Part shown: in pieces, positions 1 to 51,558 of the stretch
How the letters are laid out: each line of letters starts with the position of its first letter
Numbering within the stretch: position 1 is the first letter of the stretch
Source of the DNA: Deltaproteobacteria bacterium
GTDB lineage: Bacteria; Desulfobacterota; Syntrophia; Syntrophales; Smithellaceae
Direction of reading: 5' to 3'
Assembly: GCA_022703375.1 (NCBI GenBank)
Contig: JAKLDS010000001.1
Span: 13,540-77,539, forward strand
DNA: 64,000 nucleotides
Position numbers and translations under genes: made by a program
The notes under the pieces: generated by a model
The model's database searches: none
What the model saw: only the letters and a program-made list of their open reading frames with translations
What the model was told of the DNA's origin: nothing

Positions 1-834
1 TTACAGCAGCCGGATATTAAAAAAGCGGAAGTTCTGATTGTCAAAGATGAGAATTTCAAAAAAGAAAATGTCTGTCTGGTTACCGGTGCGGCAAGCGGCA
101 TTGGCCGGGCGGTTGCTATCGCAATGGCTGCCAATGGAATTTCTGTGGCTGCCCTGGATATTGATGAGAACGGTGGCAAAGAAACAGTTACTATGGCCAA
201 GAAACTGGGTGGCAATGTCCAGTTTATCAAAACTGATTTTACTAACGATGCTCATATTGAAAACTGCGTTAAACAGTCGGCAAAAATGGGCAGTATCAAG
301 TTTCTGGCAAATATCGCCGGATTGCAGCACATTGATTCGGTGGAAAATTTCCCCATGCAAAAATATGATTTAATGCTTTCCATTATGCTTCGTGCGCCAT
401 TCTACCTCTCCAAGCTTGTTATCCCTCATATCAAGAAGAGTAAAAACGGTGTGGGTGCCATTGGCAACATGGCTTCCATTCATGCTCATATATGTACAAT
501 GAATAAACCGGTTTACAATATTACAAAATTCGGTCTGCGCGGTCTCACGCAGTCCATCGCCGCTGAAGGCGAGGGGAAAATCCGGTCTTTTTCCGTCAGC
601 ACCGGTTTCATCAAAACTCCGCTGGCGTTAAAGCAGATTCCGGCTCAGGCTGCCCAGCGCGGCATCACCGAAGAGGAAGTGGTGGTCAATGTCATGCTGG
701 GGAAATCCAGAGTTAAAGAAATGATGAATCCTGTAGAAGTGGCTAATTTGTTCGTATTTGGATTTTCCAAACATGGTAAATACCTGGTCGGCAACGATCT
801 GCTCTTCGATGGTGGTGTCGTAAAAACTTATTAA
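1..834 (+). CDS. Short-chain dehydrogenase/reductase (3-hydroxybutyrate dehydrogenase-like), 5' end outside window
   Basis: Frame 1 is open from nt 1 with no start codon before the Rossmann motif VTGAASGIGRA (nt 79-111). Catalytic YNITK (YxxxK) and a C-terminal DGG are present; stop TAA at 832-834. Confidence 0.85.
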   Translation, partial: LQQPDIKKAEVLIVKDENFKKENVCLVTGAASGIGRAVAIAMAANGISVAALDIDENGGKETVTMAKKLGGNVQFIKTDFTNDAHIENCVKQSAKMGSIKFLANIAGLQHIDSVENFPMQKYDLMLSIMLRAPFYLSKLVIPHIKKSKNGVGAIGNMASIHAHICTMNKPVYNITKFGLRGLTQSIAAEGEGKIRSFSVSTGFIKTPLALKQIPAQAAQRGITEEEVVVNVMLGKSRVKEMMNPVEVANLFVFGFSKHGKYLVGNDLLFDGGVVKTY

Positions 835-1075
835 TGAGACCCAAATTTCAGAAGCGAAGTGCACTGAAATTTGATGGTCGTAATGAATCTCAATTTTCAG
901 AAGCACCGACGAAGCGGGGCGAACTGAAAATTGTAAGCTGAATTATCCAATTCCGATGCAGAGGAATTGGGAATTATCCCCGAGGCGAAGCCTCAGCGGG
1001 ATTATTTGGGGTTTAATTCTCCGCCCCTCGGGGGGTAAATTCCTTTTGATACCCCGCTGCTTGCGGCGGGGTGGT
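832..1075 (+). repeat. Modular intergenic hairpin repeat (TAATGAGAC family), copy A
   Basis: Begins TAATGAGAC at the SDR stop codon. Units: taatgagac+ccaaatttcag/ctgaaatttg hairpin; taatgaatc+caattttcag/ctgaaaattg hairpin; then an AATTATCC terminal module (ccaattcc/ggaattgg and ccccgaggcgaagcctcagcggg hairpins). Related copies at 37835, 49349 and 50559. The 3' end is approximate. Confidence 0.8.
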
Positions 1076-26150: not shown

Positions 26151-26561
26151 ATGAAAAGAACCTATCGTTTGTACAGTGACGGAGCCTGCCGGGGCAATCC
26201 CGGCGAAGGCGGTGCCGGTGCCGTAATAACCGACGACGCCGGTAATGCTATCTGGGAGGGCCAAAAGTATCTGGGGCAGTGCACCAATAATGTCGCGGAA
26301 TACCAGGCGCTCATTCTGGGGCTGGAGGGCGCGCTCGCCGCAGACTGCAAGAATCTAGAAATATTCATGGATTCGGAACTGCTGGCCAGACAAATAGCAG
26401 GCTCGTACAAAGTCAAGAATGAAAAACTGAAAATACTAATGCAGGAAGTCAGGAGACTTCTTTCTTTATTCAGTTCAGTTCAGGTCAAACATGTTTTGCG
26501 TTGCCACAACAGCCATGCCGACAGACTGGCCAATCAGGCAATTGACAGCCATCATAAATAA
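26151..26561 (+). CDS. rnhA: Ribonuclease HI
   Basis: 136 aa with motif SDGACRGNPGEGGAGAVI plus NNVAEYQALI and a C-terminal HADRLAN. Confidence 0.85.
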   Translation: MKRTYRLYSDGACRGNPGEGGAGAVITDDAGNAIWEGQKYLGQCTNNVAEYQALILGLEGALAADCKNLEIFMDSELLARQIAGSYKVKNEKLKILMQEVRRLLSLFSSVQVKHVLRCHNSHADRLANQAIDSHHK

Positions 26562-37258: not shown

Positions 37259-37837
37259 ATGGCAAAATCAATTAAAGGAACAAAAACGGAAAAAAATCTA
37301 CTGGCGGCTTTTGCCGGCGAAGCGCAGGCGAGAAACCGTTATACCTACTTTTCCAGTGCGGCAAAAAAAGAAGGTTTTGAGCAGATTTCCCATATCTTTT
37401 TAGAAACTGCCGAAAACGAAAAAGAACATGCCAAGGTGTTTTTTAAGCATCTGGAAGGCGGTGAAGTCGAAATAACCGCGGCGTATCCGGCAGGCATCAT
37501 TGGTGATACCAAGACAAATCTGGAAGCGGCGGCCGCCGGCGAAAACATGGAATGGACAACCCTTTATGCCGACTTCGCCAAAGTAGCCAAAGAAGAAGGT
37601 TTCCCGGAAGTGGCGCGTTCCTTTGAACAGATTGCCAAGGTGGAGAAATTTCATGAAGGCCGTTACCGGAAACTGGTTGCGAATATAGTTAATAAAGAGG
37701 TGTTTAAAAAGAAAACAACAACCAAATGGCACTGTATTAACTGCGGCTATATTTTCGAAGGCGAGGAAGCTCCCAATGAATGTCCTGCCTGCAAACATCC
37801 GCAATCATATTATGAAGTCCTGGCGGAAAACTTTTAA
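37259..37837 (+). CDS. rbr: Rubrerythrin
   Basis: Di-iron ferritin-like domain ([30 protein letters not shown]) plus a C-terminal rubredoxin CINCGY...CPACKHP. Confidence 0.95.
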
Positions 37838-37950
37838 TGAGACTAAGCCTTTTGCGCAGCAAAAGGCTTAGTCGAATTGTCCCGAGGAGCGTAGCGAATA
37901 ATCTAAAGGTCAAACGATGTCACACGTCGGGGTTAATGACACCCTAATTA
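37835..37950 (+). repeat. Modular intergenic hairpin repeat (TAATGAGAC family), copy B
   Basis: TAATGAGAC starts at the rubrerythrin stop codon. A perfect 13-bp hairpin gactaagcctttt-gcgcagc-aaaaggcttagtc follows, then an AATTGTCCCGAGGAGCGTAGCG module. The 3' end is approximate. Confidence 0.7.
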
Positions 37951-37963
37951 ATCTGCCTCTGGC

Positions 37964-38005
37964 AAAAAAAAGAAAAAGCGCAATTTCTGCAAATTGCGCT
38001 TTTTA
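37964..38005. terminator. Bidirectional Rho-independent terminator
   Basis: Stem agcgcaattt/aaattgcgct is flanked by an A-run on one side and a T-run on the other. It can serve rubrerythrin (+) and tRNA-Leu (-). Confidence 0.7.
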
Positions 38006-38015
38006 CTTTATTAAA

Positions 38016-38102
38016 TGGTGCCGAAGCCGGGATTTGAACCCGGACAGGCGTACACCCACTAGACCCTGAACCTAGCGCGTCTACCAATTCCGCCACTTCG
38101 GC
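38016..38102 (-). tRNA. tRNA-Leu (anticodon CAG)
   Basis: The reverse complement reads GCCGAAGTGGCGGAATTGGTAGACGCGCTAGGTTCAGGGTCTAG...GGGTTCAAATCCCGGCTTCGGCACCA. It has a long variable arm, anticodon loop TTCAGGG and an encoded CCA. Confidence 0.9.
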
Positions 38103-47293: not shown

Positions 47294-47411
47294 AGACGCG
47301 ATCACTTGCTTTTCACCTCAACTTCAAATGAAGGTCAATGATTTACCCCCTTAGACGCGATCACTTGCTTTTCACCTCAACTTCAAATGAAGGTCAATGA
47401 TTTACCCCCTT
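47294..47411. repeat. Perfect 2 x 59-bp tandem duplication
   Basis: agacgcgatcacttgcttttcacctcaacttcaaatgaaggtcaatgatttaccccctt occurs at 47294-47352 and again, identical, at 47353-47411. Confidence 0.95.
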
Positions 47412-47512: not shown

Positions 47513-48181
47513 ATGGACAGCAAACTTTTTTCCCCCATCATAATATTGCTCTTGTCTTTTTGCTTGAGCGCTTGCTCGCCCGGCATCAGGCCGGCCTATG
47601 TCGTGCCGGAGAAAAATAAGGATGCGCCAGCAACAAAAGCAGCAGCATCGCCCGGTGAGAATCCGGAGACGGGTGAAAGTGAAAAGCCGGATACCCTTAA
47701 ATCGCGTTTGCTGAACATCAGTATTCGGACACGCTTCTCCAGCACTGATGTGATAGGCAAAGTGGCGGCCGAGGAATTCTGGGAACACTCTGCGGCGGCA
47801 AACTTCCGGCTGCCCTGGGAGCGGTATTCTCAGTCAGGCTGGGGAGTGGGCACAAGACTGATGGCCAGCGCCGGCGTCCTTTACGGTTCCGGGGATACCG
47901 CACTGGTTGTTTCTCTCATTCCGTTGATTGCTTTCGGCAGTAAAGATGGCCGCTTCTCGGTTGATCTGGGAGCCGGCGGGGCACTGCTGAGCCGGCAGCG
48001 CTTTGGGATACAAGACTATGGAGGATTGTTCCAGTTTGCCCTGACCGCCGGCGCCAGTGTTCCAATTTATAAAACAATCGGGCTTGGCTACCGTTTTATG
48101 CACTATTCTGATGCCGCAATCTACGGGCCTCATAATACGGGGGTGGATTTTCACATGCTGGAGCTCATCTACCGATTTTGA
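47513..48181 (+). CDS. Outer-membrane acyloxyacyl hydrolase / lipid A deacylase (PagL)-like lipoprotein
   Basis: Lipoprotein signal LSAC, beta-barrel-like alternating pattern, HYSDA (HxS) motif near the C-terminus, and a terminal aromatic YRF. The family call is tentative. Confidence 0.5.
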   Translation: MDSKLFSPIIILLLSFCLSACSPGIRPAYVVPEKNKDAPATKAAASPGENPETGESEKPDTLKSRLLNISIRTRFSSTDVIGKVAAEEFWEHSAAANFRLPWERYSQSGWGVGTRLMASAGVLYGSGDTALVVSLIPLIAFGSKDGRFSVDLGAGGALLSRQRFGIQDYGGLFQFALTAGASVPIYKTIGLGYRFMHYSDAAIYGPHNTGVDFHMLELIYRF

Positions 48182-49095: not shown

Positions 49096-49299
49096 TTTCC
49101 CGGGGTGCCGGTATAAGTCCGGTTTCAAATCGAAGATGATATCGAGGCGGCAAGAAGGAGGCGACGAGGCGTATTTATGTATACGTTGAGGAAGCCGACT
49201 ACGAAGCCAACAAAGATAGCGCTTTGATTTGAAATTGGCGGCGGCTGAGATCATACCCTTTGTACCTGACCCGGACAATGCCGGCGTAGGGATTGGAAA
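49096..49299 (+). promoter_or_regulatory. TPP (THI-box) riboswitch with a large inserted hairpin
   Basis: Conserved cores GGGGTGCC (49102-49109), CTGAGA (49245-49250) and ACCCTTTGTACCTGACCCGGACAATGCCGGCGTAGGGA (49255-49292). P1 pairs tttcc with ggaaa. A 112-nt hairpin (tttcaaatc...gatttgaaa, 49123-49234) lies between the first two cores. Confidence 0.85.
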
Positions 49300-49315
49300 A
49301 GCTTCGCATCATTTC

Positions 49316-49349
49316 GCCATATCCTTACGAGAGAAGGATATGGCTTTTT
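49316..49349 (+). terminator. Riboswitch expression-platform terminator
   Basis: 11-bp stem gccatatcctt/aaggatatggc with loop acgagag, followed by ttttt. Confidence 0.8.
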
Positions 49350-49525
49350 AATGAGACTCGAATTGTGCGAGCGCAGCGTAGCAGAATTCGTAATTCGTAA
49401 TGAGACTTCAATTTCAAAAACGCAGCGCATAACCTAAAGTTCACACGTTGAAATTGGTAAGCCGAATTATCCCGCAGTAATGCGGGGAACTATCCCCGGA
49501 GCGAAGCGGAGCGGGGGTAGTTATA
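49349..49525 (+). repeat. Modular intergenic hairpin repeat (TAATGAGAC family), copy C
   Basis: Two TAATGAGAC units (49349, 49398), each followed by a hairpin (cgaattgtgc.../...gcagaattcg; caatttcaa.../...ttgaaattg), then an AATTATCCC terminal module with ccccggagcgaagcggagcgggg. The 3' end is approximate. Confidence 0.8.
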
Positions 49526-49661
49526 CTATATGCGGGCGCGGCGATCTCCTGATATGAAAGAGTCCTCATTCCGGTATGATAAAAATTTGCAATGACAACT
49601 TTATTGCTTACTATTAATTCGGCAATTAAATAGTTGAAAAAATTGCATCATCGGTAATTGA

Positions 49662-49889: not shown

Positions 49890-50561
49890 ATGGCAAAACA
49901 AATAATTATCATCAGCGGGGGCAGGTTAGGAGAGGCCGCTTTTTATCAAAAGCGTCTGGCCGGGATGCTGAATTTTCTTGTTGTCTGCTGCGACGGCGGC
50001 GTTCGCCATTTGGATAAGCTCAACATTAAACCGGACGTGATTATCGGCGATATGGATTCTGTCAGCCGCGTTGAACTGGAAAAAAGAGAGGAGGCGGGAG
50101 CCCAGATAAAGCGCTATCCGCGGGAGAAGGACGCCAGCGACACGCAGCTGGCTCTGGCTTACGCTCTATCTTTAAAGCCCGACGCCATGGAAATCTGGGG
50201 GGCGCTGGGCGGGAGAATTGATCATGCTCTGGCGAATGTATTTTTGCTGGATTGGGCGGATAAAAAGGGTGCGACGGCTAAATTAATTGATGAATACTGC
50301 GAAGTATTTCTGGTGAAAAAAGAAGCCGTTTTCCATAATGCGGAGGGGCAGACTGTTTCGATTTTTGCTCTCGATGAAAAAGCCGCAGGAGTATCGCTCA
50401 GCGGTTTTCAGTATCATCTTGATAATGAAACTCTGGCGGCTGACAGTTCTCATGGCATCAGTAACTTTATTATTGACTCTCCCGCGACGATAACAGTTCA
50501 GGCAGGCAAACTGCTCGTAATTCATTACTGGCAGCAGGATATTTTTCCGGAGGCGGATTAA
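49890..50561 (+). CDS. thiN: Thiamine pyrophosphokinase
   Basis: 223 aa with motifs GDMDS, KDASDTQLAL and GGRIDHALAN. Confidence 0.85.
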   Translation: MAKQIIIISGGRLGEAAFYQKRLAGMLNFLVVCCDGGVRHLDKLNIKPDVIIGDMDSVSRVELEKREEAGAQIKRYPREKDASDTQLALAYALSLKPDAMEIWGALGGRIDHALANVFLLDWADKKGATAKLIDEYCEVFLVKKEAVFHNAEGQTVSIFALDEKAAGVSLSGFQYHLDNETLAADSSHGISNFIIDSPATITVQAGKLLVIHYWQQDIFPEAD

Positions 50562-50728
50562 TGAGACTCGAATTACGCAAGTATAGCGAAGCGGAATTCG
50601 TAAGTCGTAATGAGTCCCAGATTTCAGAAACGTAGTGCGCTGAAATCTGCAGGACGAATTATCCAATTCCGATGTATCGGAATTGGGAATTATCCCCGAG
50701 GCGAAGCCGAGTGGGATTAATTTTGGGT
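50559..50728 (+). repeat. Modular intergenic hairpin repeat (TAATGAGAC family), copy D
   Basis: TAATGAGAC at the thiN stop codon, then the hairpin cgaattacgc...gcggaattcg. A second unit taatgagtc carries cagatttcag/ctgaaatctg. The AATTATCC terminal module is nearly identical to copy A (ccaattccgatgtatcggaattgggaattatccccgaggcgaagcc). Confidence 0.85.
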
Positions 50729-50751
50729 GTATATTATGAGTTCAGATTATT

Positions 50752-51558
50752 ATGACGCTTGTTAAAGTTTTATGCATCGGCGGTTCGGATACCAGCGGCG
50801 GCGCGGGGATTCAGGCGGATTTAAAAGCAGTTAACGCCTGCGGCGCCTGGGGAATGAGCGTGATTACGGCGGTAACGGCGCAAAACACCAAAGGAGTGCA
50901 GGGTGTCTTTGCCGTTTCCGCCGAATTTGTCGGGAAACAAATAGATGCTATCATGAGCGACATTGGCGCAGATGCGGTCAAAACAGGCATGCTGCTCAAT
51001 GCCGATATTGTGGCGATGGTTGCCGATAAGATTAAGCAGTACGGCATGGAAAAATTGATTGTTGACCCAGTGATAGTGGCCAAAGGCGGCAGATATTTAT
51101 TGCAGACCAAAGCAAGGCAAACGCTGGTGAAAAAGTTATTACCGCTGGCTTTGCTTGTGACGCCCAATATCCCGGAAGCCGAAATCCTGGCCGTAATGGA
51201 GATAAAAACAATCGCTGCGATGAAGAAGGCGGCGAAAGTAATTCAGGACTGCGGCGCAAAAAATGTTTTAATTAAAGGCGGCCATCTGCCGCTCAAAAAA
51301 GAGGCAATTGATATTCTCTATGACGGCCGGGAATTTTATGAATTTTATGCGCCAAGAATAAATACGCCGCATACCCACGGTACCGGTTGCACCTATGCTT
51401 CGGCAATAGCAGCACGCCTCGCCCGCGGGGAAGAAATCGCGGAAGCAGTATTTGCGGCCAAAGAACTGGTCACAGCAGCAATTAAAAATTCCGTCCAACT
51501 GGGAACAGGGCATGGCTCGGTTAATATATTAGGGGATTTAATAAAAAGTAAGAGGTAA
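50752..51558 (+). CDS. thiD: Hydroxymethylpyrimidine/phosphomethylpyrimidine kinase
   Basis: N-terminal IGGSDTSGGAGIQADLKA and C-terminal HGTGCTYASAIAA. Confidence 0.95.
   Translation: MTLVKVLCIGGSDTSGGAGIQADLKAVNACGAWGMSVITAVTAQNTKGVQGVFAVSAEFVGKQIDAIMSDIGADAVKTGMLLNADIVAMVADKIKQYGMEKLIVDPVIVAKGGRYLLQTKARQTLVKKLLPLALLVTPNIPEAEILAVMEIKTIAAMKKAAKVIQDCGAKNVLIKGGHLPLKKEAIDILYDGREFYEFYAPRINTPHTHGTGCTYASAIAARLARGEEIAEAVFAAKELVTAAIKNSVQLGTGHGSVNILGDLIKSKR

Follow-up and report, generated by a model that had tools for sequence, protein, structure and literature searches.

An apparently undescribed family of small hairpin-forming DNA insertions, built from 49-nt modules, in Smithella-type syntrophs

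Introduction

Several kinds of small interspersed repeat that fold into hairpins have been described in bacteria, and here we compare with them a family of DNA insertions with four copies in a 64,000-nucleotide (nt) stretch, hereafter the window, of a Deltaproteobacteria bacterium of the Smithellaceae (GenBank assembly GCA_022703375.1, contig JAKLDS010000001.1, positions 13,540 to 77,539, forward strand). The first counterpart is the REP/BIME/REPIN class with its RAYT transposases (Y1 HUH type; Enterobacteria, Pseudomonas), whose genes are usually flanked by REPs. Like the present elements, these are extragenic, hairpin-forming and high in copy number, carry a short conserved single-stranded motif 5' of a stem that varies while remaining complementary, lack target duplications, combine into module mosaics and are often transcribed in 3' untranslated regions (UTRs). 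They differ in unit length (20-40 nt in REP against 49 nt here), in linker (GTAG/GTGG against TAATGA/GAATTAT) and in module orientation (alternating in BIMEs, direct here), whereas landing at TTAAT, often at stop codons, distinguishes the present family. Second, non-autonomous derivatives of IS200/IS605 elements (PATE-type) share insertion without duplication and a size of 100-260 nt, and may also share insertion 3' of a short A/T-rich target and strand-specific imperfect end hairpins. In the present family, however, tandem units appear to regenerate the target, some copies have an end inverted repeat, both orientations are mixed within 8 kb and no TnpA or TnpB was seen in the 714 kb examined.

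Other known repeats offer more partial likenesses. The BOX elements of Streptococcus pneumoniae (boxA-boxBn-boxC) have a head, a variable middle and a tail, fold stably, lie intergenically within transcripts and have no known mobilising enzyme; this likeness is one of architecture only, as the host is unrelated, the sequence apparently so too, and each module here has its own hairpin with a conserved linker and a 49-nt unit. Miniature inverted-repeat transposable elements (MITEs) of the Correia, ERIC and RUP types are also small non-coding insertions near gene ends that alter transcripts, but they have clear terminal inverted repeats and fixed duplications (e.g. TA), and no duplication is found at the clean empty site described below. 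Integron attC sites likewise stand just after open reading frames (ORFs), keep structure while varying in sequence and act as single-stranded hairpins, whereas in our case the ends are TAATGA... and ...TAAT, there are no R''/R' core sites, cassette array or integrase (among the 65 ORFs of the window) and the copies are scattered among housekeeping genes. The family is a new example of the familiar bacterial interspersed hairpin repeats and not a new kind of system; its unusual traits are the fixed 49-nt module, the direct tandem arrangement of modules, the stop-codon landing site and a mini-insert in hairpin apexes.

An earlier note on the window, made from the sequence alone, had matched the element to no named family, and Rfam agrees: searches with both strands of the loci gave no match at gathering score and only chance-level matches at E up to 10. 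No description of the family was found in the literature on Smithella/Syntrophus repeats, MITEs and GCGAAGC, and the account of the Geobacter bemidjiensis genome says nothing more specific than that related bacteria often have multicopy intergenic sequences peculiar to their lineage (PMC2996986). The family appears to be previously undescribed.

Results

Four copies in the window and their relatives

The four loci, which we call A (832-1075), B (37835-37950), C (49349-49525) and D (50559-50728) after the coordinates of the earlier note, all belong to one genuine family of small DNA insertions that form hairpins and are assembled from 49-nt modules. Reading of all four stretches bears out the common architecture claimed for them, and the stems and loop motifs quoted at the time are correct in both sequence and folds. 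The exact 9-mer TAATGAGAC occurs five times in the 64 kb, always on the + strand and inside loci A-D (mean expectation 0.26 over 100 shuffles, none of which reaches 5). Exact GAATTATCC is expected 1.05 times in the window and occurs five times, in A, C and D only. Neither 9-mer is enriched in the window once one mismatch is tolerated, and the signal is therefore the exact motif together with its context, the motif alone being weak evidence. A covariance model (R1), applied unfiltered to the whole window, finds seven units of the type that we designate U, all on the + strand and all at the four loci (832-880, 881-940, 37835-37874, 49349-49397, 49404-49464, 50559-50607 and 50608-50656), and gives nothing better than E = 3 elsewhere in it. 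A pairwise repeat finder independently linked loci A, C and D. This amounts to about one locus per 16 kb, with copies 1-37 kb apart among housekeeping genes.

Beyond the window, a scan of 185,579 species genomes with the pattern TTAATGAGAC-N38-CGTAATGA returned 26 loci. Of these, 25 lie in metagenome-assembled genomes (MAGs) of Smithella, Syntrophaceae or unclassified deltaproteobacteria, and the wider enrichment for which the earlier note proposed to look is thus seen at the level of the clade. The sole match in Saccharibacteria (L011; L-numbers denote loci from other genomes and metagenomes compared with the window) is a chance match in which the covariance model finds no hairpin. R1 recognises 75 units in the genome-scan loci and 24 more in metagenomic loci around the thiamine pyrophosphokinase (TPK) gene, and the same architecture occurs in about 15 Smithella/Syntrophaceae MAGs and many metagenome contigs. 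The family is restricted to Smithellaceae/Syntrophaceae, that is, to Smithella-type syntrophs. Near-identical composites of two U units and two further modules (Ua-Ub-M3-M4) stand at non-homologous loci of different species. As to the uncultured bacterium of the window itself, proteins encoded there are also present on a JGI digester metagenome contig and in an NCBI MAG.

Insertion into uninterrupted sites

Comparison with relatives establishes that the copies are insertions relative to uninterrupted sites. The clearest case is locus A, whose closest relatives, L123/L124 (dehydrogenase 97% at the amino-acid level, DNA 89.9%) and L127/L128, align to window positions 1-838 and resume at 1080. 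Their empty site reads tatTAAT followed directly by TAGCCGGAT, where the window has tatTAAT, then 836-1080, then TCGCCGGAT. Accordingly, 245 nt stand between TATTAAT (829-835; TAA at 832-834) and TAGCC, with no target duplication and a junction ambiguity of 0-1 nt, and the extent of 836-1080 replaces the one first given for this locus. At D, an insertion of 191 nt (50563-50753) separates gatTAAT from tTATGAcg, with a junction ambiguous by 5-6 nt. Stop and start codons are 0-5 nt apart in about 70 orthologous TPK-thiD loci, none of which has the insertion, and in the nearest relative at D (L120) they overlap as TAATGA in the junction gatTAATGAttccgg.

The other two sites testify to turnover. 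At least 15 lineages have a related element at the place where C stands, and six (L032, L047, L054, L064, L065 and L121) have an empty site there. Locus B and the syntenic L109 (88.8% DNA identity) share the same rubrerythrin stop codon but have wholly different hairpins of U and of the M4 module, with both elements ending GGGrT-TAATGACACC. Likewise, the syntenic L005, L021 and L026 differ by whole modules, one intergenic region containing a copy on the + strand in two of the genomes and on the - strand in the remaining one; the indels between L005 and L026 correspond to exactly one module, bounded by 9-nt linker repeats. New units are also found nested within truncated older ones.

Of about 43 first units, 35 follow TTAAT or TTAGT, and internal units are preceded by G-TAAT; these counts come from fetched loci in which two-unit elements are over-represented and most of which were retrieved by a search pattern with TTAAT as a fixed part. 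The empty sites of A and D have a TTAAT of their own. Landing directly 3' of TTAAT/TTART is thus seen at these two loci, without target duplication at the clean site of A, and probably holds for the family. An exact-match test on 29 elements found no systematic flanking repeat. Of the candidate target-site duplications, TTAA fits only two or three copies, while TAATGA would suit B and D yet disagrees with the clean empty site at A; we rejected both. As TAA is part of the landing site TTAAT, the elements are often found right next to a stop codon or to overlapping stop and start codons. At A, B (rubrerythrin, ORF 37259-37837) and D (TPK, ORF 49890-50561) the head TAA serves as stop codon for the ORF upstream, and over 45 elements, with crude ORF calls, it is the exact upstream stop in eight, with no other overlap class.

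Diverged duplications of flanking sequence were also observed at L030 (3166-3400), L122 (10672-10850), L038/L049 (2250-2500) and L109 (1650-1850). The duplicated pieces are ~18 nt from the start of thiD, the TPK leader together with the first 11 codons, and ~22 nt of the 3' flank of rubrerythrin, and in L049 a block of element, leader and start is in tandem with a 141-nt period. These may have arisen by recombination between element copies at nearby sites. A retroposition-like model, with a constant end at T-runs, a variable far end and long duplications, was considered and set aside: T-runs are missing from many copies, and the long duplications, which have diverged, are more readily explained by later recombination. 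Additionally, the likeness between L109 (1917-2000) and the window (37973-38102) stops ~20 nt into the tRNA-Leu gene downstream of the rubrerythrin repeat region (aaatggtgccgaagccggga), a break that suggests a rearrangement next to the repeats.

Structure of the U unit

In all the sequence gathered, 59 of 61 distinct U copies are exactly 49 nt long, running from TAATGA through an interrupted 14-bp stem and a 2-bp ministem with a GNA triloop to a final G. We wrote the structure on an ungapped alignment of 58 units chosen by their linkers and not by folding. Positions 7-20 pair with 33-48, around a fixed 2-nt bulge at 43-44; the apex consists of an A/G-rich internal loop (21-22/30-32), the ministem (23-24/28-29) and the triloop (25-27). 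TAATGA is unpaired, and only it and the final G serve as linker. The 9-nt head that the earlier note treated as one piece hence resolves into two: TAATGA is linker, but bases 7-9 (GAC) form the outermost part of the stem, where they covary with GTC in the supposed joint, the pairs seen there being GAC/GTC, GGC/GCC, GTC/GAC, AAC/GTT and CAC/GTG.

Standard pairs fill 93.4% of the cells of this alignment, as against 74% in shuffles. Two-sided compensatory change is found in 15 of the 16 pairs, with 174 double-change cells, and 0 of 500 shuffles reach any of these measures; sliding the 3' partners by 1-3 columns lowers pairing to at most 38%. The claim of selection on structure stands insofar as variable stems are kept complementary, but its reading as an RNA element finds no support: the stem mismatches comprise 18 G·T/T·G and 21 A·C/C·A, whereas in functional RNA helices G·U is normally tolerated much better than A·C. 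Among the unpaired bases, A22 (58/58 units), G49 (58/58), G30 (56/58) and A27 (51/58) are conserved. The apex is C-GNA-G or an A-T-closed variant and is present on one strand only, which suits the suggestion that GCGAAGC forms a mini-hairpin here; d(GCGNAGC) is known to form an exceptionally stable DNA mini-hairpin.

A scan of 714 kb that ignores the head and demands a hairpin with at least 15 of 16 pairs plus A22 and G30 finds 61 distinct copies, and 60 of these are preceded by a T[AT][AG]TGA-like hexamer (TAATGA in 45, TAGTGA in 10, the rest one-off variants). RNA and DNA parameters fold the units alike. For DNA, five of the seven + strand window units have fold z-scores of -3.9 to -7.7, with C1 (-1.6) and C2 (-0.6) unremarkable; RNA folds of the window loci are significantly stable (z -3.3 to -5.4). 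We also considered that the ATG within TAATGA opens small ORFs, of 24-37 codons as counted by eye; the 49-nt period shifts their frame, their ends vary and the stems covary, and we discarded this reading.

Modules of the four loci

Each copy consists of one or two U units followed by GAAYTATCC-led M3 and M4 hairpins and sometimes by a tail module, arranged head to tail on one strand with short A/T-rich linkers between them. M3 is a 31-nt hairpin module (CCAATNCC...GGNATTGG), while M4 has the frame TTATCCC...GGGATAA around inner stems that are highly variable yet complementary. The tail module, where present, ends in GGTTCATT. The features of the window are listed below; the right boundaries of B, C and D are approximate.

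836-1080, + strand: element A as a whole, a 245-nt insertion after the 3-hydroxybutyrate dehydrogenase stop, with empty sites in relatives
832-880, + strand: U unit A1, 49 nt, consisting of TAATGA, the stem GAC-CC-AAATTTCAG / CTGAAATTT-GATGG-TC with a GCGAAG apex, and G (R1 71.2 bits; DNA fold z = -5.6, RNA fold the same hairpin)
881-940, + strand: U unit A2, 60 nt, with head TAATGAATC and an enlarged apex (R1 54.1 bits; folds)
940-970, + strand: M3 of A, linker GAATTAT and hairpin CCAATTCC/GGAATTGG (inverted repeat I11)
971-1017, + strand: M4 of A, hairpin GAATTATCCCCGAGG-CGAAG-CCTCAGCGGGATTATT and right end TTTGGGGTTTAAT (fold; frame common to the family)
1018-1080, + strand: M5, the tail of A, two G+C-rich hairpins after TTTAAT, ending GGTTCATT; recurs elsewhere
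37835-37874, + strand: U unit of B, 40 nt, perfect 13-bp stem GACTAAGCCTTTT/AAAAGGCTTAGTC with loop GCGCAGC (R1 26.4 bits; DNA z = -7.7)
37874-37937, + strand: M4-like module of B (GAATTGTCC...TCGGGGTTAAT), then TAATGACACC (sequence reading; comparison with L109)
49100-49348, + strand: thiamine pyrophosphate (TPP) riboswitch aptamer and terminator, context only (Rfam RF00059, 42 bits at 49177-49309; gathering score 54.3)
49349-49397, + strand: U unit C1, directly after the T-run of the TPP-riboswitch terminator (R1 58.9 bits)
49398-49464, + strand: U unit C2, 67 nt, with an 18-nt apex insert TAACCTAAAGTTCACACG at 49430-49447 (R1 20.4 bits, match 49404-49464)
49464-49527, + strand: terminal modules of C, GAATTATCC-CGCAGTAATGCGGG and then the hairpin GAACTATCCCC...GGGGGTAGTT (folds; conserved in L120)
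50559-50607, + strand: U unit D1 (R1 64.1 bits); TAA at 50559-50561 is the TPK stop
50608-50656, + strand: U unit D2, whose head TAATGAGTC pairs with GAC at the joint, a compensated outer stem (R1 65.8 bits; folds)
50656-50753, + strand: terminal part of D, with M3 at 50656-50686 and M4 plus right end at 50687-50737 (sequence, fold)

The terminal part of D closes with a degenerate partial unit (50738-50753) that ends TTAT just before the thiD ATG (50752). The 31-nt M3 of A recurs in other genomes and is present in one and absent from the other of the syntenic L005 and L026, and the M5 module follows T(T)AAT in L004, L015 and L028, with the likeness ending right after TTCATT. C1 is 96.6% identical to the orthologous unit of L120; the L120 orthologue of C2 lacks exactly the 18 nt of the apex insert, and the terminal hairpin of C shows compensatory changes relative to A and D.

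The insert in C2 has company. Inserts of 18-28 nt that start TAACCTAAAGGTCAC occupy the hairpin apexes of both U and M4 modules, in the window at 49430-49447 and, with 28 nt (TAATCTAAAGGTCA...), at 37899-37926 in the M4-like module of B, and elsewhere in L003, L004, L006, L014, L015, L020, L022, L025, L050, L053, L057 and L060. In L077 this motif is found upstream of TPK, at the site of the TPP-riboswitch aptamer, and in L121 and L122 it lies within the TPK leader. Either a very small secondary insertion or a structural addition that keeps recurring could account for it. A metagenomic TPK leader (L084, 2088-2320) has a different elaboration, in which a U unit plus M4 is repeated three times with a 77-nt period and the later units start CAGAGAC instead of TAGTGAGAC.

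Orientation and transcriptional context

All four window copies lie inside transcription units, two in 3' UTRs (A, B), one in a riboswitch leader (C) and one in an intercistronic gap (D). A and B each have a stop codon before them and a terminator-like hairpin after them. A terminator scan flagged the hairpin after B, while the hairpin with T-run at about 1103-1147 after A was not flagged and is read from the sequence. That the repeats are themselves intrinsic terminators was rejected: no U, M3 or M4 hairpin was flagged or has a U-run, and only the M5 tail is weakly terminator-like. C lies between the terminator of a TPP riboswitch and TPK. This riboswitch, upstream of TPK-thiD-thiC, has a terminator hairpin at 49316-49344 and, by alignment with orthologous leaders, the aptamer 5' part GGGGTGCC near 49100; a ~130-nt insertion in P3 lowers its score below gathering, and a default Rfam search therefore misses it. 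D splits a TPK-thiD pair that is coupled in relatives and leaves the thiD start without a Shine-Dalgarno-like GGAGG. Judging by their position, the window copies would add stable hairpins to messenger RNAs and D would uncouple the translation of TPK and thiD. Such effects on expression are probably a side effect, though the copy in the TPK leader has possibly been exapted.

The co-orientation with flanking genes that the earlier note remarked on holds in the window (4 of 4) but is about random across 45 elements. By crude ORF calls, 23 of these share the strand of their upstream ORF and 20 lie opposite to it, and eight elements are antisense to both neighbours. The four window copies are also on the strand of positive GC skew, which there tracks gene direction as well. 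The absence of a G·T excess in the stems together with mixed orientation outside the window favours an element that acts at the level of DNA, and the conserved unpaired bases and GNA apex on one strand only point to recognition of one DNA strand.

Some further observations may be added. A perfect 59-nt tandem duplication (2 x AGACGCGATCACTTGCTTTTCACCTCAACTTCAAATGAAGGTCAATGATTTACCCCCTT; 47294-47411) precedes a PagL-like ORF (47513-48181) of the window. The ORF at 26151-26561, with RVT_3/RNase H domains, is RNase H-like, not a reverse transcriptase, and has no connection with the repeats. In Syntrophus sp. SKADARSKE-3 (L125/L126, 2400-2470) the orthologous dehydrogenase is followed not by a U/M element but by another long hairpin with a GAAGCGAAGCGC apex (gtagggtggatgaagcgaagcgcatccacc...ccaccctac), possibly from another repeat family that shares the GCGAAGC apex.

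Discussion

We favour, at about even odds (roughly 0.5), the reading that these elements are non-autonomous, consist of a mosaic of hairpin modules and move as single-stranded DNA through the action of a RAYT- or IS200/IS605-type HUH/Y1 enzyme, being inserted 3' of TTAAT without duplication and later recombined at their linkers. As to the enzyme class, the single-stranded intermediate and the regeneration of the target, we infer the following course. The modules would be recognised and moved as single-stranded DNA hairpins by an HUH/Y1 enzyme encoded elsewhere in the genome, and would insert directly 3' of TTAAT/TTART with no target duplication. Many modules end in TAAT/TTAT, so that each could recreate the landing site and allow the array to grow, and recombination at the shared linkers would reshuffle the arrays afterwards. 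Recreation of the site would account both for the tandem 49-nt units being in phase and for relatives differing from one another module by module.

Several observations weigh against this reading. No ORF of the 714 kb matches the E. coli RAYT or IS608 TnpA queries (validated against PDB), and domain searches found no transposase or recombinase in any of the 65 window ORFs, in keeping with the earlier note, which saw no transposase or RAYT gene there. Both orientations occur within single 8-kb loci (L003, L006, L012, L021), unlike the strict replication-strand bias of IS608-type elements. In L015, an inverted repeat of 16 nt (88%) links the head AATGAGACCCAAATTT to the right end AAATGTGGGTCTAATT, and terminal inverted repeats are more typical of MITEs of DDE transposons. 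The diverged 17-60-nt duplications of a gene 5' end or flank (thiD in L030/L122, TPK in L038/L049, E2 in L109) are not predicted by the model. In L038/L049 a TAGTGA head abuts non-native sequence (ggcgg directly before TAGTGAGAC), and TA(A/G)T can therefore travel with the element and is not purely target. Finally, the window and L120 share 93-97% identity over the leader copy, against 75% over TPK DNA and 85% over the thiD 5' end, which could reflect host-level selection or homogenised copies.

The inverted repeat of L015 would fit a different origin, as MITEs derived from a cut-down insertion sequence and moved in trans by a DDE transposase, with the internal hairpins incidental. The right-end motif of the L015 type (AAATGTGGGTCTA and variants) recurs in L004, L022, L025 and L028 and in A and D of the window, TTAA/TTAT follows the right end in three copies, and the size of 100-260 nt and intergenic location are fitting. 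We nevertheless hold this origin to be unlikely, given that there is no target duplication at the empty site of A and no systematic flanking repeat in the 29 elements, that the 3' ends are variable and modular, that conservation lies in the strand-specific apex and the exact 49-nt module instead of the termini and that the window has no DDE transposase.

Equally doubtful is that the elements are host-selected RNA elements, serving as barriers to 3'-exonucleases, RNase sites or translational uncouplers, with the spread of copies secondary. The sense orientation of the four window copies in transcription units, upstream of terminators at A and B, is what this would lead one to expect, as are the significantly stable RNA folds and a leader copy at the same place in at least 15 lineages that is better conserved than the adjacent genes; REP hairpins, moreover, stabilise upstream mRNA in E. 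coli. Yet the stems have no excess of G·U over A·C, about half of the 45 elements are antisense to the nearest ORFs, eight of them to both neighbours (on crude ORF calls), and close relatives differ by presence or absence and by replacement of whole modules, the leader site itself being empty in several lineages.

Less probable still is an account without transposition, in which recombination or template-switching at linkers (TAATGA, GAATTATCC) moves modules about and hairpin-templated repair restores complementarity. One-module indels bounded by 9-nt linker repeats in L005 versus L026, the replaced module at an identical site in L109 versus the window, the diverged flank duplications, the 141-nt tandem block of L049 and a duplicated block inside the leader element of L120 all speak for such events, but de novo appearance at unrelated sites 3' of TTAAT and near-identical composites at non-homologous loci of different species would go unexplained. 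Chance likeness of a few spacers, to which the lack of 9-mer enrichment at one mismatch might have pointed, is excluded by the exact-motif enrichment, the R1 matches, the distribution across the clade, the covariation and the head-independent scan.

A bolder and rather improbable idea takes the 49-nt module itself as a self-contained, cassette-like mobile unit, which would insert as single-stranded DNA 3' of T(T)AAT and bring its own 3' TAAT, by means of an HUH protein of new specificity or of an enzyme hitherto not linked to such repeats, with its apexes colonised by the TAACCTAAAGGTCAC insert as a 'loop-hopping' element and the TPP-riboswitch copy exapted. If this were true, the module would be among the smallest known mobile units, with arrays growing head to tail and modules swapped at stop codons and stop/start overlaps.

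The general picture of bacterial interspersed repeats is unchanged by these findings. The strict 49-nt module, the one-strand GNA apex and the TTAAT site predict a matching single-strand-DNA enzyme in these genomes. The operon copy that would uncouple TPK and thiD and the copy behind the riboswitch constitute natural experiments on how insertions reshape expression. Smithella and its relatives are uncultured or hard-to-grow syntrophs of methanogenic alkane and fatty-acid degradation, with genomes available almost only as MAGs. A dense clade-specific repeat matters for assembly and binning, in that contigs break or rearrange at repeats, and for gene calling, in that the element supplies or overlaps stop codons and gene 5' ends are duplicated; the repeat family could also serve as a marker of strain or clade.

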